From a bacterium (lineage in GTDB: Bacteria > Bacillota_I > Bacilli_A > RFN20 > CAG-826), in NCBI GenBank assembly GCA_963643345.1, contig CAVIJK010000003.1:484-64483 (forward strand): 64,000 bases of DNA. The letters are read 5' to 3'. Of the stretch, positions 8,243-25,677 are shown in pieces. The position numbers and the translations under genes are program-made. The notes under the pieces were generated by a model that saw nothing but the letters and a program-made list of their open reading frames with translations, did no database searches and was not told the origin of the DNA. The stretch's first letter is position 1, and each line of letters opens with the position of its first letter.

Positions 8243-8614
8243 ATGGAAAATTTATCTAAATCTAAAAAAATCATATACGGAGTGTTGTTTGGTCTTGATG
8301 TTGCACTAACGATATTCTTTCTTGTGGTTTCCATTGTGATGTTGGCAACAATGCCTTCATCGGCGGATGTAATGCTTGGCAATTACCAAAAGAATTTTAT
8401 TGGATGGTTTCAACAAAATCCAACATGGTTCTTAGTTATCGTTGTCATCCCTCTTATCCTTTTGTTCATCGTTAATATTGTTGTTCTTGTGAAATGCGTG
8501 AAATCAGGCAACACAAAAAAGAAAGTTGCTTTGAATGATCTCTCGGAAGAGGATAAGGCAAAACTTAGAGAGGCACTTATGAAAGACCTCTCTGGTGGAG
8601 ATAAGAAAGAGTAA
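8243..8614 (+). CDS. Small 2-TM membrane protein with charged C-terminal tail (123 aa)
   Basis: ORF with two hydrophobic helices, followed by a probable hairpin terminator at about 8607-8637. No motif recognised. Confidence 0.6.
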   Translation: MENLSKSKKIIYGVLFGLDVALTIFFLVVSIVMLATMPSSADVMLGNYQKNFIGWFQQNPTWFLVIVVIPLILLFIVNIVVLVKCVKSGNTKKKVALNDLSEEDKAKLREALMKDLSGGDKKE

Positions 8615-8670
8615 GGGCTTCGGCTCTTTTCTTTTGTGATGTACTTCTCATACGTGCATAAAATAAGCGC

Positions 8671-8838: not shown

Positions 8839-9759
8839 ATGAAAAAAACAAAAATCATTCTTCCTGCAATTGCTCTCTTAGCAGTTTCAGGCATCGCATC
8901 AGTCACAGGAACCGTTGCATGGTTCTCTGCAAATAGAGCAGCTACCGTTACTGCCAGCTTCACAGCTACTGATTCTGAAGGTAACTTACAAGTCTTAGCA
9001 AAGAAAGGCGTCGGTACTACAACAACTGCTACTGCAGCAAGTACAACTAGCGCTGTCACCGTTGATGGTGTTCTTACCCATGGCTCTTATAATGCAAAAG
9101 CTGATGGTTCTGGTGAATTATATGTTGCTAACATCAGTGAACATACTTCTACTGTTGATGGTGATACAGCCACTTATGAAGTTACAGGTTATACTTCTAA
9201 AGGTGCTATCACTGGTAACACTGGAACAACCATTACTCCATCCGCTTATCCATGGATGGCAGGTACCACAAATGATGATAATAAGATTTGGTACGCAGTT
9301 TCTTGGACCGTTGATATCAGCTTAGCTCAAAATGGAAACAAGGATTCTACCAAGATGGTCTTCGTAGATTTCAACAAGACCGCGTTCTCTGATGCTAATG
9401 ATGTTAACAATGGTTTCAGAGTTGCTTTAATGGATGGTGCTCATACCTACATTATCGGTAAAGATGATCAAAAGAATCACGTCACCGGCACGGCTAAGAC
9501 AGATGTTGCTGCTTGGTCTACTGAATATCATCAATTTGCTGAAAACTACACTGCAGTCCAAGATAACGCTTCCAAGGCCGCATCTGAAGTTGTTGAAAAA
9601 GGCTTCTTATTCGAATTAAGCGGAACAGAAGCTAAAACTCTTACCTGCGTTGCATGGTATGAAGGCGAAGACACCAATGTTGTCAGCAATACTAACAATA
9701 AATTCAATGCTTCTGGTCTTACTTTAAGTTTCTATTGCAGACAAACAACCTTAGCTTAA
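8839..9759 (+). CDS. TasA/camelysin-like secreted fibre subunit with SipW-type signal peptide (306 aa); candidate major subunit
   Basis: N-terminus MKKTKIILPAIALLAVSGIASVTGTVAWFSANRAATVTASF matches the SipW-cognate signal pattern (TM then GT.A.FS...ftA). The mature part is T/A/G/N-rich. The C-terminal two-strand motif TLTCVAWYEGEDTN...LTLSFY parallels TasA VQMEIQFKDD...IKLQFSF. The gene has its own promoter and terminator. Confidence 0.78.
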   Translation: MKKTKIILPAIALLAVSGIASVTGTVAWFSANRAATVTASFTATDSEGNLQVLAKKGVGTTTTATAASTTSAVTVDGVLTHGSYNAKADGSGELYVANISEHTSTVDGDTATYEVTGYTSKGAITGNTGTTITPSAYPWMAGTTNDDNKIWYAVSWTVDISLAQNGNKDSTKMVFVDFNKTAFSDANDVNNGFRVALMDGAHTYIIGKDDQKNHVTGTAKTDVAAWSTEYHQFAENYTAVQDNASKAASEVVEKGFLFELSGTEAKTLTCVAWYEGEDTNVVSNTNNKFNASGLTLSFYCRQTTLA

Positions 9760-9904: not shown

Positions 9905-10185
9905 GCCTATCAATAGGGACTCGTGCCGCAGAGAAGGCGTCCGGCCATATATTTTTTATGGAAACAGAAGGAGTGTGCCATGAACATTAAAAATGGTCCG
10001 GCGTGATGCGGTTCCTTCCGCATGACCCGCAGAAAAGAATCGCCGTAGCTGGCCGAATCAAAGGTAACGGGGGAAAGCCTGGAATGCACGATGCACAATA
10101 TCGGCGGGGTCCGATGCCTGAAACTGCTCAAAGGGTCCGTTCAACTCATAACTTACGCCATTTAATGATGGCGTTTTTCTTTTTG
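9905..10185 (+). ncRNA. Unassigned GC-rich structured RNA / leader with its own intrinsic terminator
   Basis: About 280 nt that is GC-rich relative to its flanks. Hairpins include GCC-GCAGAGAA-GGC and ATGCGG-TTCCTT-CCGCAT (10005-10022). An 8-codon mini-ORF (9980-10006, MNIKNGPA*) sits 6 nt after AAGGAG. A strong terminator ACGCCAT..ATGGCGT plus TTTTTCTTTTT lies at 10155-10185. Both long ORFs here look spurious. Confidence 0.4.
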
Positions 10186-10275: not shown

Positions 10276-10279
10276 AATG

Positions 10280-10352
10280 CCTGTAAAGAGCAAAACTAGA
10301 GGAATCTAGTGACGCAAAGCTAAAGGGTCTACCTTAGATAGCCAGCTGCCAG
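10280..10352 (+). promoter_or_regulatory. c-di-GMP-I (GEMM-I) riboswitch aptamer, copy 2
   Basis: GAGCAAAA, CTAGA-GGAA-TCTAG, GACGCAAAGC, GGGTCTA..TAGATAGCCAGCTGCC. Same architecture and near-identical core as copy 1. Confidence 0.8.
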
Positions 10353-10400
10353 ACGATCACCACGATAATAATAGGTGTTTGATAGGCGGCTATTTTTATT
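10344..10400 (+). terminator. Candidate expression-platform terminator of riboswitch 2
   Basis: AGCTGCC (10344-10350, the aptamer 3' side) can pair with GGCGGCT (10385-10391), followed by ATTTTTATT. An inner hairpin CACC..GGTG is present. Confidence 0.35.
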
Positions 10401-10504
10401 GGATGAGACAGTCATTGGACGGGAAAACTGATTCTGATCGCATTGCACAGCGAAAAGGATTGAGTATCCGTATATTTTGGTTTTAAGAACATTAAACATA
10501 ATTC

Positions 10505-11344
10505 ATGGTTGATTTAGAATACGTAAAAAAACGAAAAAAGAAAAAGATAGCCACTTATGCTAGTTCAATTGCAACTATTGGACTGCTTGCTTTGATCATC
10601 ATTTCATTCTTAGGAAAGAAGATTGGTAATTTCACTATTGAAATGCAAAGACGCGGTACTGAACTTGCATTATCGACTGACAAATCTTTTGAAAGCCATA
10701 CGACCTTTTTGTCTATTGACGACATTCCGACGCATTCAGGCTATTACTACGATGATATGTTAAATAGATTTACTGACGATACAATCGACTCGGTTGAATC
10801 TAATGACAAATTATATTATGAGACTGATCGCGATGGGACAAAGACTGGCACCTTCTTCTTTAAGTATACTTTTTATCTCAAAAATCTTGGAACTGACGAT
10901 GCATTTTATTCCTCGTCGTTTGTAATTAAAGATATCGTTAGAGATGAGAATTTTAACTATGATTTATCCGACATTTTAAGAGTTCGCGTTTATAACAATG
11001 ATGCAGATTCAGACGAACACACAAATACAATCTACGCCAAACAAAACATCAGCTATACCCACATCGATGAAAACGGACAGGAATCGTATGATTCTCCTGT
11101 TTGCATTGATAGAGATACAGGTGAGGTTATTGGCGGCTATGCAACTTCATTTAAAAGTGATTCTATTGTGTGCGAAGATGAAAAGACCCCTATTAAAACG
11201 GGCGAATGCAGACGTATAACTTTAGTCATGTGGCTAGAACTTTCTGATGAGCAAGCCGTTGGCGATATGCCAAAAAATACAAGTATGAAGTTGGTGTATA
11301 ACCTAGAGGGCGCTCAATCATTCCAAAATCAAGATGAGGATTAA
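10505..11344 (+). CDS. Membrane-anchored TasA-like paralog (279 aa) lacking the AWF/AWY signal motif; candidate fibre anchor/nucleator
   Basis: K-rich N-terminus plus one TM (IATYASSIATIGLLALIIISFLG). The C-terminal motif RRITLVMWLELSDEQ...MKLVYNL is shared with the three neighbouring TasA-like proteins. The RBS is weak. Confidence 0.7.
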   Translation: MVDLEYVKKRKKKKIATYASSIATIGLLALIIISFLGKKIGNFTIEMQRRGTELALSTDKSFESHTTFLSIDDIPTHSGYYYDDMLNRFTDDTIDSVESNDKLYYETDRDGTKTGTFFFKYTFYLKNLGTDDAFYSSSFVIKDIVRDENFNYDLSDILRVRVYNNDADSDEHTNTIYAKQNISYTHIDENGQESYDSPVCIDRDTGEVIGGYATSFKSDSIVCEDEKTPIKTGECRRITLVMWLELSDEQAVGDMPKNTSMKLVYNLEGAQSFQNQDED

Positions 11345-11346
11345 TT

Positions 11347-12423
11347 GTGAAGAAAATTAACTTATTTCTCCCAACTTTAATTGCTACCGTTGCCTCGCTT
11401 TCTATAGCAAGTATCGGTGCTACCTACGCTTGGTATCAGTATCAAACTTTTGTTTCCATCAACCTCGGCGGAACATCAATTGATACAACCAAGTTATTTG
11501 AAATTGGTTTGGTTAGTGATGTGCAGCTTGATGTCGATAAGTATGGATTATCATATGAGAAAATTGGCGACAAGAATATCTATTGGGTTAATAGCGCCTC
11601 AACTGCCGGTGTTACGAATTATTATCTCGAAAGAAATGGTTATGGCACTGATCAATTAGAGGGAGTTACAAGCGGTAAATACACTACTGGTTCTTTGACT
11701 TCTGATGGAAAAGATGCTTTCTTCCTAAAAAAAGCACCTAACTCATTAGATAATTATTACCACCCTAATCCTGGTTATTACGACTACGCATCAAAACAAA
11801 ACTATCTACATTTTGATTTTGCGTTCCGATTAACAGAAAAATCTCCTGAAGGTTCTTCAATTGTTGAAAATATCGGTGTTAGACTTTCTAATTTCGATTT
11901 CGAATCTTCGGAAGGAGAGTTGGCTAATGCTGTTAGACTTCACTTCTGTGATGAGGATAACCCAGAGTCTTCATTTATCTACAATCCAAGCAGTGTTGAC
12001 GATGGACAAACAACAGTCGGCGGTGTCCTTGATTTAATCAATTCCGGCAACTACGACACCATTTATAGAAATGGCAGTCTTTATGAATATGCCTATGGCG
12101 AATACGAGACTCTTGTTTATAACGACGAAAAAACTACCGATGGTTCTGATGTCGATATATTTGACGCTGGCAATGGTAACAGTTTTGTTGCTAACCACTT
12201 AAATAATGCTTATGCGGTTAATCAAGAAGAGACTGTTTGGTCAACGTGCGATTACCTTGGTGCTAAGACGGTTATCTCTAAAGAAAGAAGAATCGCTTCT
12301 AGCGGTGCTGATGGTATTGCGTATTTTTCCATGGACATTTACCTTGAAGGGTGGTCGGAAGTATTCATCAATAAGGAAATGGATCACTACTTCAAATGCA
12401 ATATAGGGTTTGAAAGTATATGA
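11347..12423 (+). CDS. TasA/camelysin-like protein with SipW-type signal peptide (358 aa)
   Basis: GTG start 7 nt after GAGGA. N-terminus ...VASLSIASIGATYAWYQYQT. C-terminal motif YFSMDIYLEGWSE...FKCNIGF. Confidence 0.78.
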   Translation: MKKINLFLPTLIATVASLSIASIGATYAWYQYQTFVSINLGGTSIDTTKLFEIGLVSDVQLDVDKYGLSYEKIGDKNIYWVNSASTAGVTNYYLERNGYGTDQLEGVTSGKYTTGSLTSDGKDAFFLKKAPNSLDNYYHPNPGYYDYASKQNYLHFDFAFRLTEKSPEGSSIVENIGVRLSNFDFESSEGELANAVRLHFCDEDNPESSFIYNPSSVDDGQTTVGGVLDLINSGNYDTIYRNGSLYEYAYGEYETLVYNDEKTTDGSDVDIFDAGNGNSFVANHLNNAYAVNQEETVWSTCDYLGAKTVISKERRIASSGADGIAYFSMDIYLEGWSEVFINKEMDHYFKCNIGFESI

Positions 12424-13574
12424 ACTACAAGAAGATTATACCTATTGCCTTAGTTGCCATTTCTTGCTCATTACTTGCTTCTGTCGGCATGTCTGTAGCT
12501 TGGTATAGTAATGGTTCATATTTGCGTCTTTCTAACGTTGAAGTCTCATTGATGTCTGAGCCTGAATTAGGTTTAGGCCTGACATATAGTGACAATAAAA
12601 ACGATTACCATTTTGGTGAGTTTCCTTACGATGAACTCCCTAAGATGAAAAGTGGTTATTCGGATGTCTACGAAGAAGGACAAGAGTCTGATATCAACGG
12701 ATTTGTTCCGGTTTCGGCGATGTTTTCTAAGGAATGGATTGGCAAAAACGATGAAAACGGTTTAATTGATCCAATTTTCTATCAAAATTACAAACACGGA
12801 TTAATCATTGACACCAAGACATACCAAAAGACTTCTGCAGCAATCTCTGGATTCTATTCCGTACCGATGTATCTTTATTGCGATAGAGATATGTACGTCT
12901 CGATTGATAGTAAAACAACGGGATTTGCGGTTGACGAAAAGAAAAACCTTGAGACGGCCAAAGAGCTTCATGAAAAAGATGATAAGTACTCGGTTGATGA
13001 ATACGTTAAAGCCTTAGCGGGCGTTGTCAACTCTTTAAGATTCTCGATTTACGATTGCGAAACCTATAAATATTGGATAATTGACCCCTATAAAGGTGAT
13101 ACAACTACATATTATGGTGGCACTCTGGATTTAGATGGCAGCGGATCGTTCGATACATACTACGATTCCGACAATAAGATTTTCAAAGAATTCTTATTTG
13201 GAGAGTATCAAGACCCAGAGAATATTGTATATACGGATGAACCAATAGAAGATACGACAACCACATTTAACGCTTTCTCAGCTAACCATGTACAAGGTGC
13301 CCAAACTGTTGATATGGATTACTACTTATCCAACAACCTTATCGCTAAAGAAGAAAGCTATACACCGGAAGAACTATCAAAAGGAGATATGATTGCGATG
13401 AAAAATCATGTCCCACATAGAATTGTCTTATCTATTTACATCGAAGGATGGGATAGAGATAATACATCTGTATCGGCAATGGGATCGTTCTTCTCTTCGA
13501 TTAAGTTTAAACTTACAAGACAAAATTTTGATGCATCTGAGAATGATATTGCGAGCAGTTCTCAGAATGAATAA
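12420..13574 (+). CDS. TasA/camelysin-like protein with SipW-type signal peptide (384 aa)
   Basis: ATGA overlap with the upstream gene. N-terminus ...SLLASVGMSVAWYSNGS. C-terminal motif RIVLSIYIEGWDRDN...SIKFKL. Confidence 0.78.
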   Translation: MNYKKIIPIALVAISCSLLASVGMSVAWYSNGSYLRLSNVEVSLMSEPELGLGLTYSDNKNDYHFGEFPYDELPKMKSGYSDVYEEGQESDINGFVPVSAMFSKEWIGKNDENGLIDPIFYQNYKHGLIIDTKTYQKTSAAISGFYSVPMYLYCDRDMYVSIDSKTTGFAVDEKKNLETAKELHEKDDKYSVDEYVKALAGVVNSLRFSIYDCETYKYWIIDPYKGDTTTYYGGTLDLDGSGSFDTYYDSDNKIFKEFLFGEYQDPENIVYTDEPIEDTTTTFNAFSANHVQGAQTVDMDYYLSNNLIAKEESYTPEELSKGDMIAMKNHVPHRIVLSIYIEGWDRDNTSVSAMGSFFSSIKFKLTRQNFDASENDIASSSQNE

Positions 13575-13585
13575 AGGAGAAACCT

Positions 13586-15109
13586 ATGAGTGATTACTTT
13601 ACATACTTGTCAGAAGTAGTGGAAGCTTTCTGGAAAAACTTCTGCACCTTCATGTATGACACATTTGTCACACCTTGGTCAAAGGTTGGTGGCAATTTCC
13701 AACACTACCACACAATCTTCTACACTTACTATCAGAGTTTCGGATTTTGGGGTTGGTTTTTCTTCATTTTATTCGCACTTTTGTTACTCGCAGCAGTAGG
13801 CGGTTTGGTATTTCTTATTGTTATAGGCCTTAGAAAATATGTTAAGTTCTACAGGAAAGAACTTGATAAAGATGCTCTTAGAGAACAGGTAGATAGACTC
13901 AATTATGAACTCTATCAAGCCGTTGCAGAGAAAGATAGAATTCTTGGACTGCAAGTTAATGCGCTTGGCTTAAAGAACCCAGAATTAGATAAGAAGAATG
14001 CTCAGGATGTCGTTGATGAAGTTTCATCAAGATTCCCTAAACTTACATGGGTTGACCATCAATATGCGGATTTCGACGCAACAATTCCTGATATCCCAGA
14101 TTTCACATTGGAGGAATTGTGCAATAGATTTAGATTATTCGCGGCCTCTCAGTTACATCTTTATTATACAGTAGATACAATTAGACAACTGTTTGCAGGT
14201 ATGGCTACCTCCAAATTGATGATTCTTGAAGGTATTTCCGGTACAGGTAAAACTTCCATGGCGTATGCTTTGGGTAAATTCTTCCAATACGACGCGAATA
14301 TCTGCTCGGTTCAGCCTTCTTGGAAAGATAGATCAGAACTTATCGGTTACTACAACGAATTCACCAAGAAATTCAATGAAACCGAATTCTTACGTGCTTT
14401 ATATACAGCAACATACCGTAAAGATATCAACATCATCGTCCTCGATGAAATGAACTTGGCACGTATCGAATACTACTTCGCAGAATTCTTATCCGTCATG
14501 GAAATGCCTAACATCAATGAATGGAACATTGAATTAATCAACACCTATTCAAATGATGATCCTAAGAACGTCCATAACGGCAAAATGTTAATCCCTCAGA
14601 ATGTTCAGTTCTTCGGTACCGCTAACAACGATGACTCCACATTCACAATCTCAGATAAGGTCTATGACCGTGCTATATCCTTATTCTTTGATAATAAAGG
14701 TATTGCCTTTGATGCTGAATTCACTGATCCAGTCAAATTATCATATGATCAATTCCATCAATTATGCATTAATGCATGGAATGACTATCCAATATCTGAT
14801 GCAATTTTAGATAAATTCGGTGAGCTTGATAACTTTGTTATCGCTAAATTCAAACTTGCGTTTGGTAACCGTATTTTGAAACAGATGAAATCATTTGTTC
14901 CAGCCTATGTTGCGTGCGGTGGCACTGAAATCGACGCAGTCGACTTCATCTTCACCAACAAGATTCTCAAGAAGTTCGAGTCATTGAATGTCGCATTCTT
15001 GAGAGACGAATTGGGCGAACTCAACCTTAAACTTGATGAATTATTTGGTGAAGGTACATTCAAGATGGCCCACAAATACATCAATAACTTGCTGAAGATG
15101 TCAGCTTAA
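13586..15109 (+). CDS. Membrane-anchored McrB-like AAA+ (AAA_5 / COG1401-type) NTPase (507 aa)
   Basis: One TM (FWGWFFFILFALLLLAAVGGLVFLIVIGL) followed by a coiled coil. Walker A is GISGTGKTS and Walker B is IIVLDEMNLARIEYYFAEFLSVME. FFGTANNDDSTFTISDKVYDRA matches the McrB-family pattern GT.N.D..T...S.KV.DRA. A strong RBS (AAAGGAG) precedes the start. Confidence 0.82.
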   Translation: MSDYFTYLSEVVEAFWKNFCTFMYDTFVTPWSKVGGNFQHYHTIFYTYYQSFGFWGWFFFILFALLLLAAVGGLVFLIVIGLRKYVKFYRKELDKDALREQVDRLNYELYQAVAEKDRILGLQVNALGLKNPELDKKNAQDVVDEVSSRFPKLTWVDHQYADFDATIPDIPDFTLEELCNRFRLFAASQLHLYYTVDTIRQLFAGMATSKLMILEGISGTGKTSMAYALGKFFQYDANICSVQPSWKDRSELIGYYNEFTKKFNETEFLRALYTATYRKDINIIVLDEMNLARIEYYFAEFLSVMEMPNINEWNIELINTYSNDDPKNVHNGKMLIPQNVQFFGTANNDDSTFTISDKVYDRAISLFFDNKGIAFDAEFTDPVKLSYDQFHQLCINAWNDYPISDAILDKFGELDNFVIAKFKLAFGNRILKQMKSFVPAYVACGGTEIDAVDFIFTNKILKKFESLNVAFLRDELGELNLKLDELFGEGTFKMAHKYINNLLKMSA

Positions 15110-15128
15110 TTAATCTACAAATCGTTTT

Positions 15129-18100
15129 ATGCAAAAAAAGAAGAAAATCGAAAACTTAAACAATTCGACCGCTACCAGAAATGGGGCGGATTCTTCTCTT
15201 TCGGGCGCGCACACAGGCACAGGCAAGGGAACTAAGAAATCCAAAGTCAGCAGAAAAGAATTAGAGAAGCTCTCAAGAAAACCAAAAACCGCCAAAGAGG
15301 AGAAAGTGTCGCTTTCAGAAGAAGGCTTCCTTGAAATCGCCAAGGAACTAAAACCTCAGAAAGAGGATATTTTCGATGCAGGCAAAATTGAATTTGGAGA
15401 GGATAAAGTCTTAAAAGAAGAAGCTGATGAATCACCAGTTGATACTCCAATCGATGAGAATGCTTCAGATATCGCTAGATTGGCTGAATTGGCTCTTCAA
15501 GATGAGAAGAGAGTTGAAGAACAAGAAGCGGAAGCCGAGAAAGAACGTATCGAAAAAGAAGAACAGGCCAAGGTACTTAAAGAAGAACAAGAAAGATTGG
15601 CAGAGGAACAGGAAGAAATCGATAGAGAAGCCGCAGACGACACTCCTAAATCGGATAGAGTTCCTCCAAAAGAAGTTCCATCCCCTGAGACAATCACAAA
15701 GAAAGACGAAGATTTATTTGACTACGATTCAAAGAATAAGATCCTTGAAAATGTCATCAAATCCGCAGTCTTAGAAGATGAGGATTTAGATCGTTTATCA
15801 AAACTCCTTGGCAATGGAAATTCTGTCCATACTCTAAGATTATCTCGCCATGAGACCGGATCATTCGATATGGCGTGGGTTAAAGCGGTAGAAGACGCAA
15901 TCCCTGCCATCGATGAAATTCTCAAGAATCCTAGAATCAACACTAAAGTGGTTACAGATATCGTTCCGGTTGAACTCGCAAAGAAGACTGGATCGGAATC
16001 AGTTAAACACTTAGCGTCCCACACTCAGTATGTTAAAGACATCGATGAGAATGGTAACGTTATCCCGTCGAAGATCCTTAATATCGGTTCCGATGACGAA
16101 TATATCACATATGAAAATAGATTCGTCGCAACGGTAATTAGACGCCTAGTCCTCTTTATCGAAAAGAGATATGACTTCATCGTCAAATATTCCGAATTAA
16201 AAGATTATGACATCCTCTATATCAAGAACCATTCCGATGTTAACGGATTGGCAGTGGATGTTGAATCTAAAGTGGTGGTATCACGCCCATCCGGCAAAGG
16301 TGCTGCTGACGGAGAGGATAACGCTTCCTTGATGAAGCGTATCAACCTCATGAGAAGGTACGCTAAATTCTTCTATTCATCTGATTTCATGAAGAGATTC
16401 AAGAATGAGAAGAATGTTCGTGCTCCAATCATGCAGACTAACATCATTAGGAAAAACCCTAAATACCATAAGGTTTATAACCTCTATCGTTTCATGGAGA
16501 TGTATAGAGCCTTAGGCGTAGAATTCACGGTAAAAGAAGACTACTACCTCCCAGAACAAGCGGATTTAGATACAATCAACAATTTGACAGTGGCTAACTT
16601 TCTTGCCGCTAGAGCAAAACCATCAGAAAAAGACAAAGTCAGTAAAGTAGAGGTTAAGAATCCTGAGGTTTTAACAACCGTCGATGATGATATCTTCACA
16701 TTCTTCCCGACTGGAGAATATCCTGAGTACGTTAGAGTGGACGAAGAGTATCTCAGATGGAAAGAAAGAAACACCAAGGACCTTAAAGAAGACCCGAATG
16801 AGCTTGAAAAAGCCTATAGAGGCAATGACTATCTTAGAAAAGCAAAGGCAGAGAAGGAACGCGCTAGACGCGAAGCCCTTAAGGCAAGACGTGAGAAAGA
16901 ACGTCAGGAATTCCTAGAAGAGCAAGAGAGACTCAAAGCCGAGAAAGAGGCCGAGAGAATCCGCCAAGAGAAACTCGCCAAGGAAAGAGAAGAAGCCAAG
17001 GCTCTCGTTGAGCTTGAGGCCGCTAGAGAAGCCGTTAGACAGGCCGCTAGAGAAGAAGACGAGGACTTATTGCTTGCAATAGTCACACCAGTTGAAATTA
17101 CAATCACAGGCGATACCGAAATCGTTGCTAAGACAACATATGCGCAGCTCGAATCAACGGTAGAATTCTATATTGCTGATCCATCACTTGTTTGGTCATC
17201 ATCCAATGAGGAAATCGCAACCGTTGACCAAACCGGATATGTTTCCGGTTGGAAGGAGGGCGATGTTGTCATTAGGGCAACATCGGTTGAGGACCCATCA
17301 TGCTATACGGATTACGAGATGCATGTTTATCCAAGGCCTCCGATCACTGTCAGTTTCCCAACAATCGACAAGATTCTTGTTACTAAAGAGGCAACGCTTA
17401 CCCCAGTTGTTAGAAACGCAGATGATTTATCGGTCATCTGGCATTCTTCCAATGAGGCAGTTGCTACGGTTATAGACGGTGTAGTCCATGCTTATTCTGC
17501 AGGCAATGTCGTCATCACCGCTTTCTCGTCCGAGGATCCAACAAAATCACACTCAATCTGCATCCACCCATTAGATGGCATTGAATTAAGTGGAGAATCT
17601 CATTCAATAGTTTCAAGAAGAACAACTCTTCAGTTGAACGCATTCTCTAATGTTTCAGCAGACGACATGATTCTGTTCTTCTCGAGCGACGAAAATATCG
17701 CAACGGTTGATCAGAATGGACACGTTGAAGGCGTCTCATGGGACGGAGGAGAAGTCGAAATCAAAGTCATCTCCACAGTTGACCCAACAATTTCAAATAC
17801 ATATAAGGTTACAGTCTTGCCTAAACCTATCGTCAGTGTTACGCTCGAAGGCGATTCAAGAGTGTTCCTCTCTAGACCAAATCAATTGATTGGCACAGTC
17901 ATCAACGCGATGGTCAATGATGTCACATGGACATCGTCTGACGAAAGCGTTGCTACAGTTGTAGACGGGGTTGTTACCGGCGTTTCAATCGGCAGTGCAA
18001 CCATCACTTGCAGGTCAAATGAAGAGACCGATAAGTTCGCAACACTCGATATCGAGGTTAAAGAAGCAATCATCATTGCAGAGCATAAAGATTCCCTCAT

Positions 18101-21100
18101 CGCTGATTTAACAATGAAGTTAGAGGCCATCTCTAATGTCAGCGACGATGACACAATCATTTGGGTATCATCTGATGAATCTGTTGCAACGGTTGATAAT
18201 AACGGCATAGTTACTGGCGTTAAAGAAGGAGACGCAACAATCAGCGCTTCATCTTCTAAAGAACCAGAATTGTTCCAAGAATTCACTTTACATATCACTC
18301 CAGCAATCGCAGTCACGTTAAGCGGTTCAAATGTTGCCCTCACAACGAAGACCATTGCTACTTCAGTTGAGGTTTTGAATGCTGAAGATTATTCAGTTAC
18401 ATATAAATCATCCGACGAAAATATCGCTACAGTTGATGAAAACGGCGTTGTCACAACGCTATCAGCTGGCGTTGTAATGATTAGCGCAACCAGCGTTCAG
18501 GACCCTACAAAGAACAGCGAAATCGAAATTACTATCAGAGATGGTATCGAACTTTCGACACCAGTTGTTGCTATTCGCGCCGGAAAGACAACGGTTTGGA
18601 GTGCAATCTCAAATGTTGCTGAAGATGACGTAATCGTTTGGTCAACAGACGATGAATCTATTGCAACAGTTGATAGTAACGGCACAATCACTGGCGTCAG
18701 CGATGGCAAGGCTACAATTTATGCAACCTCCTCAACTGACGACACGCTTTATGCAACCGGCGTTATTGAAATTAGATCCGATATCGCAATCGAAATCGAT
18801 GGACCAGCTAAAATCATCAAGTCTAGAACGGCTAAGTATGAGGCAATTTTGTTAAATGCCGATAATTCTGCGGTTATTTGGTCAACATCTGATGACGGCA
18901 TCATCACAATCGATGAAAATGGCGTTGCTACCGCACTTCAAGTAGGCGATGCCGATATAATGGTACAAAGCGCTGAAGATAGCGAGAAGACATCTTCAAT
19001 CCGTATCAGCGTCAAGGAAGGCGTTGAATTGAATTATGTAGAAACATCGCTTATTTCTAACAAGACGACATTGACGCTAAATGCAATCACAAACGTCTCT
19101 GATGATGACACAATCGTCTGGACTTCATCTAACGACAGTATTGCAACTGTTGATAATGGTGTCGTCACCGGAATCGATAAACTTGGTGGAGATGTGGTTA
19201 TTAGAGCGTCTTCATCTAACGATCCAGAACTATATAAAGAAGTCAATATCCATGTAGAACCTATGCCAATTGTTGGCATTAATATCATCGGTTCTAATAG
19301 AGCAATCCCTGGCAAGGCAATTCAGTTGGCGGCAGAGGTTGAACGTGCAGATGATCCAAGCGTCGTCTGGACAACATCCGATGAGAACATCGCAACGGTT
19401 GACGAGAATGGCTTAGTCACTCCGATCGCTGTAGGCAAAGTTCTGATCTCGGCTACATCGGTTGAACAGAACGATAAATGCGCAACATTTGAAGTCAATG
19501 TCTATGAAGGCATTGTCTTTGATACATATAAGGAATCACTTGTCGTTGGCAAACCTGAGCAATTCGGAGCCATGTCTAATGTTTCAGAGGATGATGTAGT
19601 TGCCTATTCATCATCCGATGAGAATATCGCAACGGTTGACGAGAAAGGCGTTGTAACCGGAATTAATGCTGGAACTGTTACGATTACTGCTTCCTCCAAA
19701 ACCGATTCAACATTCTTTGTTGATCGCGAAATAAGCGTTAAACCTGACGTTTCTATCGAAATTGTTGGTCAAAATAATTATGTCATTGGACAGAAAGTTC
19801 AGCTTACTGCCAATGTCTTGCACGCAATAGACACAAGCGCTACTTGGTCATCAAGTAACGAATTCGTCGCTAAAGTCGATTCCGAAGGATTGCTTACGGT
19901 TCTTGCGGCAGGCACAACCGTTATTTCAGCTAGATCCGTAGAGGATATGAGAAAACTCGCCACGCTTGAAATCACCGTCATTGATGGAATCGCGTTCCTT
20001 GATGATTGTGATGAAGTGTTCATCGGCAAGAGCGTCGAACTCTCCGCTAAGAGTAACCTCGAGAATGACTCAATCATTTGGTCGTCATCGGATGAGGCAA
20101 TCGCCACAATCGATGAGAACGGACTTCTAACCGGAACAGGACTTGGTGAGGTCACCATTAAGGCAACCTCAACCACAGATGAGAATGTTTATAGTGAACG
20201 CAAGATAGATGTTGTGCCAAGAGCTCCAATCGAAGTTGAAGTTTATGGTACAGATAGACTTTTCGTCGGCAAAGATTCGCAATTCAGCGTATATGTCACT
20301 AACGCAGATGACCCTTCGGTCACTTGGGGCTCGTCTAGTGAGGATGTTGCAACAGTATCCTCGGATGGACTTGTACACGGCGTATCCGCAGGAGATGTCA
20401 CGATTCTTGTCACATCAATTGAGGATCCAACAAAGTCGGCATCCCTTACTTTAACAATATCCGACGGTCTCACGCTCGAAGCTGATGAGATTGAGGTCAT
20501 TGCAAAGGATGATGTTGTTTGGAGCGCAATATCAAGTGTTGCTCCAGATGACACAGTCACTTGGACATCAAGCGATGAAACAATCGCAACGGTTAGAGAA
20601 GGCATGATTACCGGTGTAACTGAGGGCGTTACAACAATAACAGCAACATCCAACACCGACCCTGCTATCTCTATTTCTAAAGAAATCACGGTCCTTCCTA
20701 GACCTGCAACAATTCTTACAATCGGTGAACTTTCTTCAGTGGTCATGGATGGCAATGCAACGATTCCATTTACCATTGAAAACGCTAAAGATAAAACCGT
20801 CAGATGGACGTCCTCTGATGAATCCGTAATACGTGTTGATGATGCCGGAACATTAACCGGCGTTGCCATTGGAAGCGCTGAAATCACTGTCACATCAGTC
20901 GAGGATCCTACAAAATCAGCAACTACAAGTGTGGCATGTATTGAAAAGGTCATTGTCACGTCTGAGGAAGATACCTTTAGAGTTAAGGAAACCATCGCAC
21001 TCACGGGCGTCTCTAATTTAGGAGATGAAGATACGCTTGTTTGGACAACTTCTGATGTCAATATCGCTACAGTTTCTCCAAATGGAGAGGTGTTAGGCAT

Positions 21101-21872
21101 TGGAGAAGGGGAAGCAATAATTACTGCGACCTCAACTTTAGATCCAACGGCTTCCGCTTCTAAGACGGTAACAGTGCTTCCTAAACTGAATATCATCTTC
21201 ACAACTTCAACTCCTGCGACAAATATCACCGCAGGAAAACAGTTCACTATCTCAACCCATATTGAGAATGCTAAAGATGAGAGCCTCACTTGGACAACAA
21301 CTGATGAGAAGGTTGCAACAGTTGAGAACGGGCTTGTCACTGGCGTATCTAGAGGCAACGCAACAATCACTGCATCAGTCAATGAAGACCCGGATAAGAC
21401 TATAACGGTCAACGTTTCAGTCAAAGGCGGCATCATCATCGCTCCTGGTGTCCGCGAGGTTAAGGTTGGACAAACCCTTATACTTTCCGCAAAATCAACC
21501 GTCGGTATTGGCGATAAGATCGTTTGGGAAACAAGCGATGAGGAAATCGCCTTCATGACGGGCGAGGTTGTCTGCCCAGTGAAACCAGGCGTAATTACTG
21601 TAACTGCAACATCGAGTATCAATTCGTTGGTACATTCCTCGGTTGAGGTCACAGTGCATGAGAAGACCTACACCCTTAAGAAGACTGTTGTTAAGAGCGA
21701 TAGAGTCCTTACGCTTGATGACATCAAGACCAATAAACAAGGACGCGTTGTCTCGACCTTCAAGAGAGAGACAATCGTTGAAGAACTCGTCGAGGACGAT
21801 GGCATCACCGTTGTTGATGGTACAAAAGCCTCTAGCCTCAAGGATGAAGAGGCAAAAGACGAGAATAAATAA
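15129..21872 (+). CDS. Giant 2247-aa protein: K/E-rich N-terminus, tentative McrC/DUF2357-like helical domain, coiled coil, 19 tandem Big_2 Ig-like repeats; no signal peptide or TM
   Basis: Single uninterrupted ORF. ITYENRFVATVIRRLVLFIEKRY and NIIRKNPKYHKVYNLYRFMEMY recall McrC-N/DUF2357 motifs (from memory, tentative). An E/K/R coiled coil spans about aa 560-640. Nineteen repeats then carry the core W.SS[DN]E.[IV]ATVD.NG.VTG..G.A.I.A.S. Confidence 0.88.
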   Translation: MQKKKKIENLNNSTATRNGADSSLSGAHTGTGKGTKKSKVSRKELEKLSRKPKTAKEEKVSLSEEGFLEIAKELKPQKEDIFDAGKIEFGEDKVLKEEADESPVDTPIDENASDIARLAELALQDEKRVEEQEAEAEKERIEKEEQAKVLKEEQERLAEEQEEIDREAADDTPKSDRVPPKEVPSPETITKKDEDLFDYDSKNKILENVIKSAVLEDEDLDRLSKLLGNGNSVHTLRLSRHETGSFDMAWVKAVEDAIPAIDEILKNPRINTKVVTDIVPVELAKKTGSESVKHLASHTQYVKDIDENGNVIPSKILNIGSDDEYITYENRFVATVIRRLVLFIEKRYDFIVKYSELKDYDILYIKNHSDVNGLAVDVESKVVVSRPSGKGAADGEDNASLMKRINLMRRYAKFFYSSDFMKRFKNEKNVRAPIMQTNIIRKNPKYHKVYNLYRFMEMYRALGVEFTVKEDYYLPEQADLDTINNLTVANFLAARAKPSEKDKVSKVEVKNPEVLTTVDDDIFTFFPTGEYPEYVRVDEEYLRWKERNTKDLKEDPNELEKAYRGNDYLRKAKAEKERARREALKARREKERQEFLEEQERLKAEKEAERIRQEKLAKEREEAKALVELEAAREAVRQAAREEDEDLLLAIVTPVEITITGDTEIVAKTTYAQLESTVEFYIADPSLVWSSSNEEIATVDQTGYVSGWKEGDVVIRATSVEDPSCYTDYEMHVYPRPPITVSFPTIDKILVTKEATLTPVVRNADDLSVIWHSSNEAVATVIDGVVHAYSAGNVVITAFSSEDPTKSHSICIHPLDGIELSGESHSIVSRRTTLQLNAFSNVSADDMILFFSSDENIATVDQNGHVEGVSWDGGEVEIKVISTVDPTISNTYKVTVLPKPIVSVTLEGDSRVFLSRPNQLIGTVINAMVNDVTWTSSDESVATVVDGVVTGVSIGSATITCRSNEETDKFATLDIEVKEAIIIAEHKDSLIADLTMKLEAISNVSDDDTIIWVSSDESVATVDNNGIVTGVKEGDATISASSSKEPELFQEFTLHITPAIAVTLSGSNVALTTKTIATSVEVLNAEDYSVTYKSSDENIATVDENGVVTTLSAGVVMISATSVQDPTKNSEIEITIRDGIELSTPVVAIRAGKTTVWSAISNVAEDDVIVWSTDDESIATVDSNGTITGVSDGKATIYATSSTDDTLYATGVIEIRSDIAIEIDGPAKIIKSRTAKYEAILLNADNSAVIWSTSDDGIITIDENGVATALQVGDADIMVQSAEDSEKTSSIRISVKEGVELNYVETSLISNKTTLTLNAITNVSDDDTIVWTSSNDSIATVDNGVVTGIDKLGGDVVIRASSSNDPELYKEVNIHVEPMPIVGINIIGSNRAIPGKAIQLAAEVERADDPSVVWTTSDENIATVDENGLVTPIAVGKVLISATSVEQNDKCATFEVNVYEGIVFDTYKESLVVGKPEQFGAMSNVSEDDVVAYSSSDENIATVDEKGVVTGINAGTVTITASSKTDSTFFVDREISVKPDVSIEIVGQNNYVIGQKVQLTANVLHAIDTSATWSSSNEFVAKVDSEGLLTVLAAGTTVISARSVEDMRKLATLEITVIDGIAFLDDCDEVFIGKSVELSAKSNLENDSIIWSSSDEAIATIDENGLLTGTGLGEVTIKATSTTDENVYSERKIDVVPRAPIEVEVYGTDRLFVGKDSQFSVYVTNADDPSVTWGSSSEDVATVSSDGLVHGVSAGDVTILVTSIEDPTKSASLTLTISDGLTLEADEIEVIAKDDVVWSAISSVAPDDTVTWTSSDETIATVREGMITGVTEGVTTITATSNTDPAISISKEITVLPRPATILTIGELSSVVMDGNATIPFTIENAKDKTVRWTSSDESVIRVDDAGTLTGVAIGSAEITVTSVEDPTKSATTSVACIEKVIVTSEEDTFRVKETIALTGVSNLGDEDTLVWTTSDVNIATVSPNGEVLGIGEGEAIITATSTLDPTASASKTVTVLPKLNIIFTTSTPATNITAGKQFTISTHIENAKDESLTWTTTDEKVATVENGLVTGVSRGNATITASVNEDPDKTITVNVSVKGGIIIAPGVREVKVGQTLILSAKSTVGIGDKIVWETSDEEIAFMTGEVVCPVKPGVITVTATSSINSLVHSSVEVTVHEKTYTLKKTVVKSDRVLTLDDIKTNKQGRVVSTFKRETIVEELVEDDGITVVDGTKASSLKDEEAKDENK
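17085..21660 (+). repeat. Coding tandem array of 19 Big_2-type repeats (about 240-270 nt each) alternating between two subtypes
   Basis: Repeat cores were counted in the translation. Near-identical DNA 20-mers recur, for example ATCGCAACGGTTGACGAGAA at 19389-19408 and 19626-19645. Confidence 0.85.
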
Positions 21873-21893
21873 TATTTAATAAGAGGATTAATA

Positions 21894-22667
21894 ATGGCAG
21901 AAGAAAAAGAAGCGAAAAAACCTCTATGGAGGAGAATAACCGATTGGGTCATGACGGGAATCGTTGTGGTTTTAGTCGGCTTCTTTGCTGCCTTTATGAT
22001 CAATGGACAGGTAACTAAGAATAAGAATTACGGAGTTAACATGTTCCTGGGAACCGCAACACTCGTAGTTCAGACTGATTCCATGGAACCTTTATATCCT
22101 GTAGGTTCCGCCATATTCGTCAAGGATACTGAGCCATCTGATATCAAAATAGACGATGATGTCACATTCTATTATCAGTCTTGGGGATTGGTGGTAACTC
22201 ATCGAGTCTCTAATATTGAATATAGACAGGATGAAGGAAAATATTACTTCACGGTTCATGGCATCAACACCGATTCTGAACAGTGCGCAGGAACAAATGG
22301 CGGTCAAAGAGACTGCACAGATCAAACCCAAACGTTTTCAGAGGATTACCTCATCGGAAGGGTTTCAGGGAAATCCGTGGCCTTTGGCAAGATTTATAAG
22401 TTCTTCACGACGATTTGGGGTTTGATAATTCTTCTAGCCATCCCAGCCACTTATTTAATCACCACTAGCGTAATCGATATTGTCAAAGCCGTGAAAAGCG
22501 ATGAAGATGACATGACATCTAAACCATCGGGTGAAGCTAGCGGGATGGAAGGGCTGAGTCCTGAAGACATCGCAAGATTAAAAGAGGAGATGCTCAACGA
22601 AATGATTGAGCAAAAACAGCAAGAGCTCTTGAATAAAGAGGGAAAGGAAGTCAAGAAAGATGAATAA
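21894..22667 (+). CDS. sipW: SipW-type (archaeal/ER-like, S26B) signal peptidase I with C-terminal TM and acidic tail (257 aa)
   Basis: N-terminal TM, catalytic Ser in VVQTDSMEP and His in VVTHRV, as in B. subtilis SipW (SGSMEP / THR). A second TM and an E/K-rich tail follow. Confidence 0.82.
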   Translation: MAEEKEAKKPLWRRITDWVMTGIVVVLVGFFAAFMINGQVTKNKNYGVNMFLGTATLVVQTDSMEPLYPVGSAIFVKDTEPSDIKIDDDVTFYYQSWGLVVTHRVSNIEYRQDEGKYYFTVHGINTDSEQCAGTNGGQRDCTDQTQTFSEDYLIGRVSGKSVAFGKIYKFFTTIWGLIILLAIPATYLITTSVIDIVKAVKSDEDDMTSKPSGEASGMEGLSPEDIARLKEEMLNEMIEQKQQELLNKEGKEVKKDE

Positions 22668-24195
22668 AAGAGCAAAAATATTAATTTCCTTAGCAGCGAC
22701 ATCCGTCGCGCTTGGCATCGCAATCGCCATATTGTTCCCAATTTTGATTTTCGGGAATGATTCAATCGGATTGAACCCAACAAGCAACACCATATTCGTT
22801 GTTGCGCTCGTTGTTTGCGTTTCTTTTTCGACCATCTTCATTGCTGTCACTGTAAGGGAAATCCAAAACGAGAACGGTTCGTTAAACGAGAACTTGTATA
22901 ACTTAGGTAAGAGAATCTCTTTCTACAACTTGGATACCTTCACAAAAGCCGTATCTGTCGTATATAAGAGAAAAGCGGATAAGAGCTATGTCATTTCTTA
23001 TTCCCCTATTAAAACCGATATCATCTATGAATCGTTCCAGGCGGACCAGGTCAGAACTTTTTATGGTTTAATCGCCGATAAGTTCATCGCTTATTTCTCC
23101 GTTCCAGAGATGGTTAAGGCTAGAGCCTCATACTGCTTCGATAAGAATTCGTTCTTCATCTATTTTGTAGGCGATGAAAATCTTCTTAACCAAATCACTA
23201 ACGATTTCGAGGCGATGACATTCGATCTCGCTAAAGAGAATGACATCCGTTTATTTGTTCAGCCATATTTCGGAATTGTCAAAGGAAGCAAAGAAATCTC
23301 GGTTTTCCAGGCGATTGATAACGCGTCTGCTGCCCGTAAGAGCGGTGAATCCAAGTACATTTCAAAGAGCTATTACAGCGAAAAGAAAGATAACACATCG
23401 TTTGAGAATGAGCTCGACAAGATTCTCGATGCTTTAAAGAACGACGAATTCATCGTTTACTATCAGCCAAAATTCAACCTTGCCCATAAGCAATTCGTCG
23501 GACTTGAAGCTCTTGTGAGATGGAATTCGCCTGAACACGGACTTGTCTCACCTGCTAAGTTCATTGACTTCGCAGAAAACTCCAATATCATTCATGAACT
23601 TGATATTTATATCTTAGATAAGGTTTGCAGGGATATCGCAGACTGGAAGAGAAGAGGAAAGAAGATTCTTCCTGTTTCTGTAAACTTCTCGGTCTATGAG
23701 TTATTCATCCCAACCTTTATTTCAGATGTTGAGAAGACAATCGAGAACTATGGCGTTAACCCAATGCTTATCGAAGCAGAAGTTACCGAAACCGTCAGAT
23801 TCAATATCTCATCATCGCTTTACATTCAGTCCGTCCTCAGAAAGATTAGAGAAATGGGTATCAAGATTCTTCTTGATGACTTCGGTTCCCACGCCTCATC
23901 ATTCAACACGTTAAAGGAACTCCCTATCGACATTATCAAGATCGATAAGTCATTGGTCGATGGAATTGCGGTGGATTATAAATCGAAGGAAATAGTCAAG
24001 GCGGTCATCACGATGGCTAAGACTATGAACCTCGGCATCATCGCTGAAGGCGTTGATAAGGAAGAACAGGTTAAGATTCTCTCTGAATCAAGATGTGACG
24101 AAATCCAGGGATACTATTACAGTAAGCCAATCCCTAAGAAAGACTTAGAGAAATTCCTCTCAGTCAACCCATTCGAGAGCAAGGAGGTCTTGTAA
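22660..24195 (+). CDS. Membrane EAL-domain c-di-GMP phosphodiesterase with degenerate GGDEF-like domain (511 aa)
   Basis: Two N-terminal TM segments. EAL motifs are EALVRW, SVNFS, EVTE, DDFGSHASS, KIDKS, AEGVD and QGYYY. An 8-nt overlap with sipW suggests translational coupling. Confidence 0.85.
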   Translation: MNKRAKILISLAATSVALGIAIAILFPILIFGNDSIGLNPTSNTIFVVALVVCVSFSTIFIAVTVREIQNENGSLNENLYNLGKRISFYNLDTFTKAVSVVYKRKADKSYVISYSPIKTDIIYESFQADQVRTFYGLIADKFIAYFSVPEMVKARASYCFDKNSFFIYFVGDENLLNQITNDFEAMTFDLAKENDIRLFVQPYFGIVKGSKEISVFQAIDNASAARKSGESKYISKSYYSEKKDNTSFENELDKILDALKNDEFIVYYQPKFNLAHKQFVGLEALVRWNSPEHGLVSPAKFIDFAENSNIIHELDIYILDKVCRDIADWKRRGKKILPVSVNFSVYELFIPTFISDVEKTIENYGVNPMLIEAEVTETVRFNISSSLYIQSVLRKIREMGIKILLDDFGSHASSFNTLKELPIDIIKIDKSLVDGIAVDYKSKEIVKAVITMAKTMNLGIIAEGVDKEEQVKILSESRCDEIQGYYYSKPIPKKDLEKFLSVNPFESKEVL

Positions 24196-24196
24196 T

Positions 24197-24934: not shown

Positions 24935-24935
24935 A

Positions 24936-25469
24936 ATGGATAAAGTAGAAAAACAACTTAGCCATGATCAAGTGTTCGACGGAACGCTTCTTCATGTCTA
25001 TAAAGACAAAGTGCTTTGTCCAAATGGGAACGAATCGACCCGCGAATACATAATGCATCAAGGCGCATCAGCTGTGCTCGCTTTCCTTCCTGATGGCAAA
25101 ATCATCATGGAGAAGCAGTTCAGATACCCATTTCACAAAGATGTGTATGAGGTACCCGCCGGAAAGCTAGACCCAAATGAATCTAGCGAAATCTGTGCAA
25201 TCCGCGAACTTGAGGAAGAAACGGGATGGCACGCAAACACGATTGAATATTATGGTGCGGTATACCCTTCTATTGCCTACACAAATGAAGTGATTCATCT
25301 ATACGTTGCAAAAGATTTGGTCAAAACCAAACAGCATCTGGATAAAGATGAGACTCTTGAAGTCCTCTATATGAATCTGGATGATGTGGTGGAGATGATT
25401 AAAAACGATGAAATTAGGGATTCTAAGACCATTGCGATAATCTCAAGATACGTCCTCAAAAACAATTAA
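24936..25469 (+). CDS. Nudix hydrolase, ADP-ribose pyrophosphatase-like
   Basis: Nudix box GKLDPNESSEICAIRELEEETG. I use the ATG at 24936; the track's 24897 start is a TTG inside the previous gene. Confidence 0.8.
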   Translation: MDKVEKQLSHDQVFDGTLLHVYKDKVLCPNGNESTREYIMHQGASAVLAFLPDGKIIMEKQFRYPFHKDVYEVPAGKLDPNESSEICAIRELEEETGWHANTIEYYGAVYPSIAYTNEVIHLYVAKDLVKTKQHLDKDETLEVLYMNLDDVVEMIKNDEIRDSKTIAIISRYVLKNN

Positions 25470-25649: not shown

Positions 25650-25677
25650 AAAAAAAGAGATGGACGAATCCATCTCT
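25650..25677 (-). terminator. Intrinsic terminator of eno
   Basis: AGAGATGGA..TCCATCTCT stem with a T-run on the minus strand. Confidence 0.7.

Follow-up and report, generated by a model that had tools for sequence, protein, structure and literature searches.

A membrane-tethered McrB-type NTPase and a McrC-like partner without a detectable nuclease in a conserved, c-di-GMP riboswitch-led operon with a SipW-type signal peptidase

Main

Restriction enzymes of the McrBC type couple a ring-forming motor, McrB, to a nuclease, McrC. Here we describe two adjacent genes in which the motor is tethered to the membrane and the partner has lost its nuclease. They lie at 13586-15109 and 15129-21872 of a 64,000-nucleotide (nt) stretch of DNA (hereafter the window, in whose numbering all positions are given) from a bacterium of the GTDB lineage Bacillota_I, Bacilli_A, RFN20, CAG-826 (assembly GCA_963643345.1, contig CAVIJK010000003.1, positions 484 to 64,483). 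The first gene encodes an McrB-type AAA+ nucleoside triphosphatase (NTPase, also called the ATPase below) and the second a giant protein bearing the McrC domain DUF2357. Both belong to an operon of essentially fixed gene order, headed by a cyclic di-GMP (c-di-GMP) riboswitch, that also encodes a SipW-type signal peptidase and its putative substrates. On balance, we favour the reading that the pair is a domesticated member of the CoCoPALM class of McrBC relatives and serves a c-di-GMP-induced, SipW-dependent fibre as its motor or platform. CoCoPALM has been described as a large clade of NxD-type McrB GTPases with an FtsB-like transmembrane and coiled-coil fusion and with coiled coils on both partners (PMC11090510).

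The pair comprises the following features.

13586-15109, + strand: McrB-type AAA+ NTPase, 507 amino acids (aa) (Pfam AAA_5, PDB matches)
15129-21872, + strand: giant McrC-like open reading frame (ORF), 2247 aa
15129-15728, + strand: E/K-rich N-terminal extension of the giant protein, ~200 residues, clade-specific
15729-16808, + strand: McrC-like core with DUF2357, residues 201-560, no detectable nuclease (Pfam)
16821-17078, + strand: long E/K/R-rich helix, residues ~565-650, probable coiled coil (AlphaFold2 (AF2), PDB profile)
17082-21665, + strand: 19 Big_2 (bacterial immunoglobulin (Ig)-like) domains, then a short acidic tail to 21872 (Pfam)

Results

An NTPase of the McrB type is tethered to the membrane

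The 507-aa protein carries GISGTGKTS at residues 216-224, IIVLDEMN... from residue 283 and FFGTANNDDS at residues 342-351, and matched Pfam AAA_5 at 25.2 bits (cut-off 22). E. coli McrB (6hz4, 6ut6, 7vsr) was the sole PDB protein at E<=1e-4, both with the single sequence (phmmer, E 1.5e-5) and with a profile built from 24 family sequences; everything below it had E>0.6 in either search. LEGISGTGKTS and IIVLDEMNLARIEYYFAEFLS of the ATPase align to GPPGVGKT and IIDEINRANLSKVFGEVMML of E. coli McrB, and the alignment is gap-free over Walker B (DEMNLARIEYYFAEFLSVME against DEINRANLSKVFGEVMMLME; DEMNLAR against DEINRAN) and over the signature loop (GTANNDDST against GLMNTADRS). By these comparisons the protein is an McrB-type AAA+ NTPase, nearer to McrB than to MoxR among solved structures. 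The original prediction, made by a model from the letters, had recognized McrB-type hallmarks in the same motifs and had held that clustering with a non-McrB family such as MoxR would refute it; the hallmarks are present, and the match among solved structures is to McrB.

Among 120 database and 86 genomic homologues, Walker A, Walker B with DEMNLAR, and GTAN[N/K]DDST were invariant or nearly so. The last of these was invariant in the 86 and reads as N-x-D followed by a second D, although formally it can also be read as NxxD. Because the catalytic motifs are invariant in these 86-120 homologues, selection evidently maintains the ATPase as a working NTPase.

Only one strong hydrophobic segment is present, at residues ~54-82 (nt 13745-13831; Kyte-Doolittle 19-residue mean 3.07), behind a conserved aromatic-rich tail at residues 1-53. 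An N-terminal hydrophobic helix was present in 84/84 full-length genomic homologues, and the transmembrane tether is a trait of the ATPase family. Directly C-terminal of the helix lies the basic run RKYVKFYRK, followed by a heptad pattern at residues ~88-123 with spaced hydrophobics at L98, V102, L105, L109, A112 and I119, the AAA+ domain at residues ~190-370 and a conserved C-terminal domain. Given the basic residues after the helix, the positive-inside rule predicts that the coiled-coil-like stretch and the NTPase are cytoplasmic and that the ~50-residue N-tail is outside. The earlier claim that a transmembrane helix and a coiled coil take the place of a DNA-binding domain thus stands, with a short heptad stretch as the putative coiled coil.

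The partner is a McrC relative without a detectable nuclease

The giant ORF begins 19 nt past the ATPase stop, as originally noted. Its residues 201-560 matched Pfam DUF2357 (PF09823) at 24.9 bits (gathering cut-off 23.3; E 1.4e-5), and the motifs ITYENRF and NIIRKNPKY were located at residues 326-332 and 438-446. Four close homologues passed the same model (E 1e-8 to 6e-6), and it also matched 32/54 members of the wider family (best E 1.3e-13), which were drawn from an exhaustive search giving 1767 representative clusters. According to Bell et al. (eLife 2024, PMC11090510), DUF2357 is the N-terminal domain of McrC, the part that touches McrB and activates it. The domain emerged only with the coiled coil trimmed: Pfam, PADLOC and NCBIfam gave no match on the untrimmed 440-700-aa N-terminal region, and against PDB sequences the core (phmmer) and the family profile returned only coiled-coil or low-complexity matches.

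Pfam detected no nuclease family in 94 McrC-like members (40 + 54), a Foldseek search with the AF2 model of the core returned no nuclease fold, and the invariant residues of the family contain no D...(D/E)xK constellation. Judged by its sequence, the giant protein is a DUF2357-bearing McrC relative without a detectable nuclease, in agreement with the original prediction, which had proposed a McrC/DUF2357 N-terminal domain and had seen no PD-(D/E)xK motif after it. A candidate remnant of a dead nuclease, a 16-residue hhalign alignment beside the McrC DAK motif, was rejected; AF2 models that stretch as helix.

Behind the core, AF2 predicted residues ~565-649 (model residues 365-449) as one continuous, E/K/R-rich helix of ~85 residues, and the family profile over this helix matched only coiled-coil or low-complexity PDB chains. 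Residues ~565-650 probably form a coiled coil. Pfam Big_2 then recognized 19 stretches (E 2.4e-138). Tandem Repeats Finder reported no DNA-level repeat in the array, and the Big_2 copies therefore appear to be old and diverged. A coiled coil and an Ig-repeat array had been noted after the core, and both are present here; in a survey of 80 loci and 150 representative proteins, however, the array was limited to the window protein and three close relatives (L009, L010 and P0368). The same four proteins have in common the ~200-residue N-terminal extension, which had no Pfam match; in most McrC-like homologues the conserved module begins at residue ~20-50. We also considered whether the giant ORF was a misassembly and discarded this, given the identical architecture in the independent assemblies L009, L010 and P0368.

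The McrC-like module itself (residues ~200-640) has more than 1000 homologues, mostly just 450-800 aa long. In these, the coiled coil is followed by acidic/proline-rich low complexity, by a repeated unknown ~190-aa domain, or by nothing. The tails of P0398, P0382 and P0456 (residue ~470 on) hold 3-6 copies of the ~190-aa domain (..RIRHHAMCYGLRSRVSQKADTF..IVGKTLK.HYALNP..VRSDLS.RRA..), which has no Pfam match. A small conserved C-terminal domain (..G(K/R)F(I/V)VKT..GYYV......A.IF.DF..A......GGKV(V/I)KL) occurs in 14/137 representatives and is absent from the window protein; in P0361, P0364, P0370, P0388, P0394 and P0036 a GYYV...GGKVVKL-type domain follows long acidic/proline-rich spacers.

Hydropathy analysis revealed no transmembrane segment or signal peptide in the giant protein, nor in 74 McrC-like homologues, and the Big_2 array is therefore predicted to be cytoplasmic rather than on the envelope. 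An antisense ORF of 469 aa (20243-21652, - strand) lies wholly inside the array and is probably a by-product of repeat composition, not a gene.

Operon layout and gene order are conserved

The pair sits within a co-directional string of genes at 10505-25469 (ORF map). Together with the pair, the region contains the following features.

8243-8614, + strand: small protein with two transmembrane segments, 123 aa (hydropathy; same-position homologue in 39 related loci)
8613-8628: terminator-like hairpin after the 123-aa gene (terminator scan)
8839-9759, + strand: putative major fibre subunit, 306 aa, SipW-type signal peptide, own transcription unit
10155-10174: terminator-like hairpin 3' of the 306-aa gene (terminator scan)
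10279-10353, + strand: c-di-GMP-I riboswitch aptamer, leader of the long operon (Rfam RF01051)
10344-10402, + strand: terminator-like hairpin and U-run, probable expression platform (minimum-free-energy fold)
10505-11344, + strand: first operon gene, 279 aa, N-terminal membrane anchor, candidate base subunit (hydropathy, hhalign, synteny in 49 loci)
11347-12423, + strand: minor subunit paralogue, 358 aa, SipW-type signal peptide (..IGATYAWYQ..) (hhalign)
12420-13574, + strand: minor subunit paralogue, 384 aa, SipW-type signal peptide (..VGMSVAWYS..) (hhalign; syntenic in 62 loci)
21894-22667, + strand: SipW/archaeal-type signal peptidase I, 257 aa (NCBIfam; homologue in 67 syntenic loci)
22660-24195, + strand: membrane-bound EAL-domain protein, c-di-GMP phosphodiesterase family (Pfam EAL 6.1e-68; two transmembrane segments; syntenic)
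24197-24934, + strand: PNP_UDP_1 nucleoside phosphorylase-family protein (Pfam; syntenic in most loci)
24897-25469, + strand: NUDIX protein, last operon gene in the window (Pfam)
25656-25677: bidirectional terminator ending the operon (terminator scan)

A scan of species-representative genomes found relatives in at least 530 species, and we analysed the best 80 loci. Two individual homologous ATPases also had identical neighbourhoods. Across ~80 species-level genomes the order is essentially fixed: a protein with two transmembrane segments, a ~300-aa protein, a gap, a ~279-aa protein, two ~350-aa proteins, the ATPase, the McrC-like protein, the SipW-like peptidase, EAL and PNP_UDP_1. The ATPase and McrC-like genes adjoin in essentially every related locus with enough flank, and the trio of ATPase, McrC-like and SipW genes is retained down to 44-46% ATPase identity, on contigs labelled Izemoplasmatales, Acholeplasmataceae and Tenericutes. 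The most distant trios are again flanked by proteins with ..G(S/A)TFAWFT.. signal peptides. Over the at least 530 species genomes, ATPase identity ranges from 44 to 92%, with a fixed position and vertical-looking conservation.

A prophage or defence-island setting was considered and set aside, the neighbours being enolase, a uracil-DNA glycosylase (UDG)-family gene, a thiamine transporter and tRNAs. Operon copies with 44-70% identity also occur on contigs labelled Paludibacteraceae, Bacteroides uniformis, Gammaproteobacteria or Lachnospiraceae (L023, L044, L046, L011 and L084), for which binning contamination or mislabelling seems the likeliest explanation. We found no Shine-Dalgarno-like sequence before the giant ORF start (15110-15128) or before the first operon gene (10480-10504), which may reflect low Shine-Dalgarno usage in the lineage.

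A SipW-type peptidase accompanies four paralogous exported or anchored proteins

The 257-aa peptidase, encoded 22 nt downstream of the McrC-like gene, matched NCBIfam TIGR02228 at 54.7 bits (cut-off 51.85) and Bacillus SipW at E 7.4e-14, and has transmembrane segments at both its N and C termini (hydropathy). Its homologue is found in 67 related loci, the most distant included. By eye, the signal peptides of the 306-, 358- and 384-aa proteins end in G-T-x-A-[WY]-[FY], the 306-aa protein reading ..SVTGTVAWFSA... The families are related: hhalign gave 99.9% probability for the 358-aa against the 384-aa family, 98.3% for the 358-aa against the 306-aa family, and 91% over 134 columns for the 279-aa against the 306-aa family. 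At the level of profile comparison the four proteins are mutual paralogues, the 279-aa protein being distant. The latter carries a membrane anchor at its N terminus, lacks the A-W-F cleavage motif and is a candidate for a membrane-anchored base subunit.

The 306-aa protein diverges far faster than the rest of the operon. BLAST recognized it in just 20/80 syntenic loci, and its detectable homologues number 160 where the ATPase has more than 8000, as would be expected of an exposed antigen or phage receptor. Its AF2 model (pLDDT, the predicted local distance difference test, 84.5) is beta-rich with a free, disordered N-terminal extension. Foldseek matched it to PapA, the TasA fibre 8aur (E 0.027), the Saci_0406 thread 7pnb (probability 0.69), AbpA, CS20, CfaB and CanA, matches that, though weak, are enriched in donor-strand fibre subunits. 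We infer that the secreted beta-rich proteins are fibre subunits.

A c-di-GMP riboswitch leads the operon

The aptamer at 10279-10353 scored 59.8 bits against Rfam RF01051 (gathering score 35). A c-di-GMP-I aptamer stood directly upstream of the first operon gene in 11/12 related loci, namely 6/6 close and 5/6 distant ones. The leader has a minimum-free-energy fold of -38.7 kcal/mol (z -2.97) that contains a terminator-like hairpin and a U-run. Because the 5' arm of this hairpin overlaps the 3' strand of the aptamer, ligand binding would prevent termination, which suggests an ON switch.

Distant relatives carry additional aptamers, with tandem copies in the operon leader. L085 has tandem c-di-GMP-I aptamers (6142-6220 and 6294-6375) and a further one at 14820-14894 inside the cluster, before additional subunit genes; L073 has tandem aptamers at 2006-2088 and 2151-2226, one of which matches the c-di-GMP-I-GGC variant model. 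The window itself holds a second c-di-GMP-I aptamer (2012-2087, + strand, 61.1 bits) upstream of two large GGDEF-EAL proteins (ORFs 2169-5234 and 5273-7699), so the neighbourhood appears to be a c-di-GMP regulatory hub. Disposal of c-di-GMP breakdown products is a conceivable role for the PNP_UDP_1 protein.

Discussion

A proposed role in fibre assembly

Our preferred proposal, that the pair serves a surface fibre, draws on domain identity, invariant synteny, co-regulation and analogy. The McrB-like protein, with its NTPase intact, has given up the DNA-reading domain; in its place are a short conserved N-terminal tail, a single transmembrane helix and a short heptad stretch on the cytoplasmic side. 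McrB NTPases work as hexameric rings, and the predicted assembly is therefore a ring on the cytoplasmic side of the membrane. The McrC-like protein keeps DUF2357, with which McrC inserts into the McrB ring and turns on hydrolysis; where the nuclease would be, it has a long coiled coil and a tail that varies between lineages and here consists of 19 Ig-like domains. A rise in c-di-GMP would allow the leader terminator to be bypassed and the operon to be transcribed; the subunits would be exported via Sec, cut by SipW and polymerized on the membrane-anchored base. Ring and activator together may then act as a cytoplasmic motor or platform that energizes, gates or anchors fibre assembly, in a role comparable to that of the ATPase-plus-platform pair of type IV pili, and the EAL enzyme would give negative feedback. 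Ring formation, activation by the McrC-like protein and any mechanical role are proposed here by analogy with McrBC. The original prediction had suggested exaptation for a cell-envelope function. The operon context, with SipW, secreted paralogues, riboswitch and EAL enzyme, agrees with that suggestion, but the Ig array itself, which had been part of it, is predicted to be cytoplasmic.

Several results weigh against this proposal. The suggestion that the N-terminal region of the giant protein has the fold of McrC found no backing in Foldseek: no McrC was among the 50 PDB matches listed for the AF2 core, and none of these reached E<=0.001. Likewise, hhalign of the McrC-like family against the lone E. 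coli McrC sequence gave a probability of 0.2%. The core model has a pLDDT of 77, and its best-conserved stretch (residues ~277-320, PVELAKK...H..H.Q..K) falls below 50; because confidence is low exactly in the most conserved segment, we treat the failure of the structure search as a weak negative. Pfam did not detect DivIC/FtsB in the ATPase N-terminus. On the fibre side, TIGR04088, the model for SipW-cognate signal peptides, appeared in 3/5 N-terminal peptides at 9.5-16.7 bits, below its cut-off of 19, and all Foldseek matches of the 306-aa protein were individually non-significant (E 6e-3 or weaker). The subunit proteins had no match to Pfam TasA/camelysin (Peptidase_M73), and searches with NCBIfam and a PDB profile found no TasA/camelysin either. 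Finally, to our knowledge TasA-type and chaperone-usher fibres polymerize without a cytoplasmic NTPase, which leaves the need for a motor unexplained.

This last point is what would be expected if the pair were an NTP-dependent switch or checkpoint rather than a motor, licensing SipW processing or secretion or relaying c-di-GMP status. The tight co-regulation of the NTPase with the EAL enzyme and the riboswitch fits such a role, and McrC-stimulated hydrolysis is intrinsically a regulated switch (PMC11090510). Domain scans, however, detected no c-di-GMP-binding domain such as PilZ in the ATPase or the McrC-like protein, and the strong conservation of the catalytic motifs suits motor and switch alike and does not discriminate between them. 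We consider a switch unlikely. A more distant prospect is that the tethered AAA+ ring carries the variable tail of the McrC-like protein (in this case the 19 Big_2 domains) up to the membrane or through it, and that the tail acts as a surface adhesin. Bacterial Big_2 arrays are typically extracellular adhesin stalks, and the tails are hypervariable between lineages, as expected of exposed parts. Against this, 0/74 homologues have a signal peptide or transmembrane segment, DUF2357 must remain with the cytoplasmic NTPase, protein translocation is not known for McrB-type rings, and Ig-like domains can equally fold inside the cell, as those of phage virion proteins do. Such delivery strikes us as quite improbable.

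Two further explanations detach the pair from fibre assembly, and we give them very little weight. The pair could still be immune, as a membrane-associated Type IV restriction, CoCoNuT-like or abortive-infection module neighbouring or guarding a phage-receptor fibre. Its ancestry is that of a restriction enzyme, the sister CoCoNuT systems are predicted defence systems (PMC11090510), and the ATPase matched the PADLOC candidate-defence model PDC-M26A (4.9e-40), although we found nothing on PDC-M26 in the literature. Yet PADLOC matched the ATPase alone, and no nucleic-acid-binding domain was found, nor any nuclease or other effector in the pair or operon. The fixed position and vertical-looking 44-92% identity in at least 530 species genomes are unlike patchy defence islands, and the pair shares its transcript, led by a c-di-GMP riboswitch, with the fibre genes; an immune role is therefore very unlikely. 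Still harder to credit is a cell-division or envelope-remodelling factor, in which an FtsB-like transmembrane and coiled-coil module would bring the NTPase to the divisome with no involvement of the fibre genes. Bell et al. described the N-terminal fusion of the class as FtsB-homologous (PMC11090510), and the ATPase is conserved at a housekeeping-like level, but the failure of Pfam to find FtsB/DivIC, a coiled coil placed in the cytoplasm by the positive-inside rule (opposite to FtsB), the lack of division genes nearby and the invariant linkage to SipW and its substrates all speak against it.

A more ambitious form of the fibre proposal can be stated, and we regard it as possible but rather doubtful. 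In it, the McrB-derived ring and nuclease-less McrC would be the energizing core of a previously uncharacterised class of surface-filament machine, one that would assemble, anchor or actuate SipW-processed, donor-strand-type fibres with a c-di-GMP riboswitch in direct control. In this lineage the 19-Ig rod would be a structural element of the machine, either kept in the cytoplasm as a ruler or scaffold or exported as a stalk.

The operon is a clear example of how the motor of a restriction enzyme can be recruited to a task at the cell surface, outside defence. Should the ring indeed power or gate fibre assembly, a new kind of NTPase would join the short list of those that build bacterial filaments, and a family found in at least 530 species genomes, most of them from uncultured Bacilli of gut and rumen, would gain a function. 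The family is widespread in reduced-genome, Mollicutes-like gut Bacilli, and the conserved c-di-GMP riboswitch provides an immediate experimental handle. The anatomy of the operon, with four paralogous subunits, a dedicated peptidase, EAL feedback and hypervariable McrC-like tails, is a starting map for a class that so far has little more than a name.

Comparison with known systems

Type IV pili and archaella resemble the operon in organization, with major and minor subunits, a dedicated processing peptidase and a hexameric cytoplasmic NTPase at the membrane (the hexamer being predicted here). Type IV pilus systems of Clostridia are often under c-di-GMP riboswitch control. The components are nevertheless all unrelated: the NTPase is AAA+/McrB here and PilB/FlaI there, processing falls to a type I signal peptidase here and to a prepilin peptidase there, and the subunits are beta-rich whereas pilins have an alpha-helical stem. 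Closer in their secreted parts are the donor-strand fibres of the TapA-SipW-TasA, BsaA and archaeal AbpA types, which likewise have a dedicated SipW-type peptidase, substrates whose signal peptides end in ..G-T-x-A-[WY]-[FY].. and, as modelled here, beta-rich subunits with a free N-terminal extension. These fibres have no cytoplasmic NTPase, in contrast to the window operon, whose subunits lack a Pfam TasA/camelysin match and have weak structural likeness to TasA.

With canonical McrBC (E. coli K-12; PDB 6HZ4, 6UT6, 7VSR) the pair shares an AAA+ core that aligns without gaps across Walker B and the signature loop, and an NTPase gene closely followed by its DUF2357 partner. It differs in having neither the N-terminal DNA-binding domain nor the PD-(D/E)xK nuclease, in the membrane tether of its NTPase, and in lying within a non-defence operon that is vertically conserved. 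CoCoNuT systems (CnuB/CnuC) belong to the NxD-type McrB clade, with which the motif of the pair is compatible; like the pair, they have coiled-coil fusions on both partners, and their McrC homologue frequently has no nuclease or an inactivated one (PMC11090510). CoCoNuTs, however, pair with HEPN or other nucleases and RNA-binding domains and have no membrane anchor, whereas the window operon has no nuclease at all.

The nearest relative is CoCoPALM, named in three sentences with its analysis deferred to a future paper (Bell et al., eLife 2024, PMC11090510). Since the class was named in 2024, the idea of exaptation is itself not new. Our literature search found no follow-up work on CoCoPALM, met SipW and McrB together only in a mention of an E. 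coli strain genotype, and returned no account of a c-di-GMP-I riboswitch in the leader, of EAL and PNP_UDP_1 genes, of a set of four paralogous subunits, or of McrC-like tails that are hypervariable or carry an Ig array. In both the class and the pair, an McrB-like NTPase (a GTPase in the class) has a transmembrane and coiled-coil module and no DNA reader, and is adjacent to a coiled-coil McrC homologue. Both have an association with the signal-peptidase family, here with a SipW-type peptidase, and a signature motif that reads N-x-D with another D after it, the form reported for the NxD clade (PMC11090510). Coiled coils are found on both partners, here as the ~85-residue AF2 helix and the short heptad region of the ATPase, although the predicted cytoplasmic coiled coil of the ATPase has the opposite topology to that of FtsB. 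Assigned by the published description of the class, the pair fits every testable stated feature and would be CoCoPALM-type. What sets the window's McrC homologue apart is its 200-residue N-terminal extension and its 19 Big_2 domains: the core of the pair is ordinary for the class, and its Ig-array tail is unusual.

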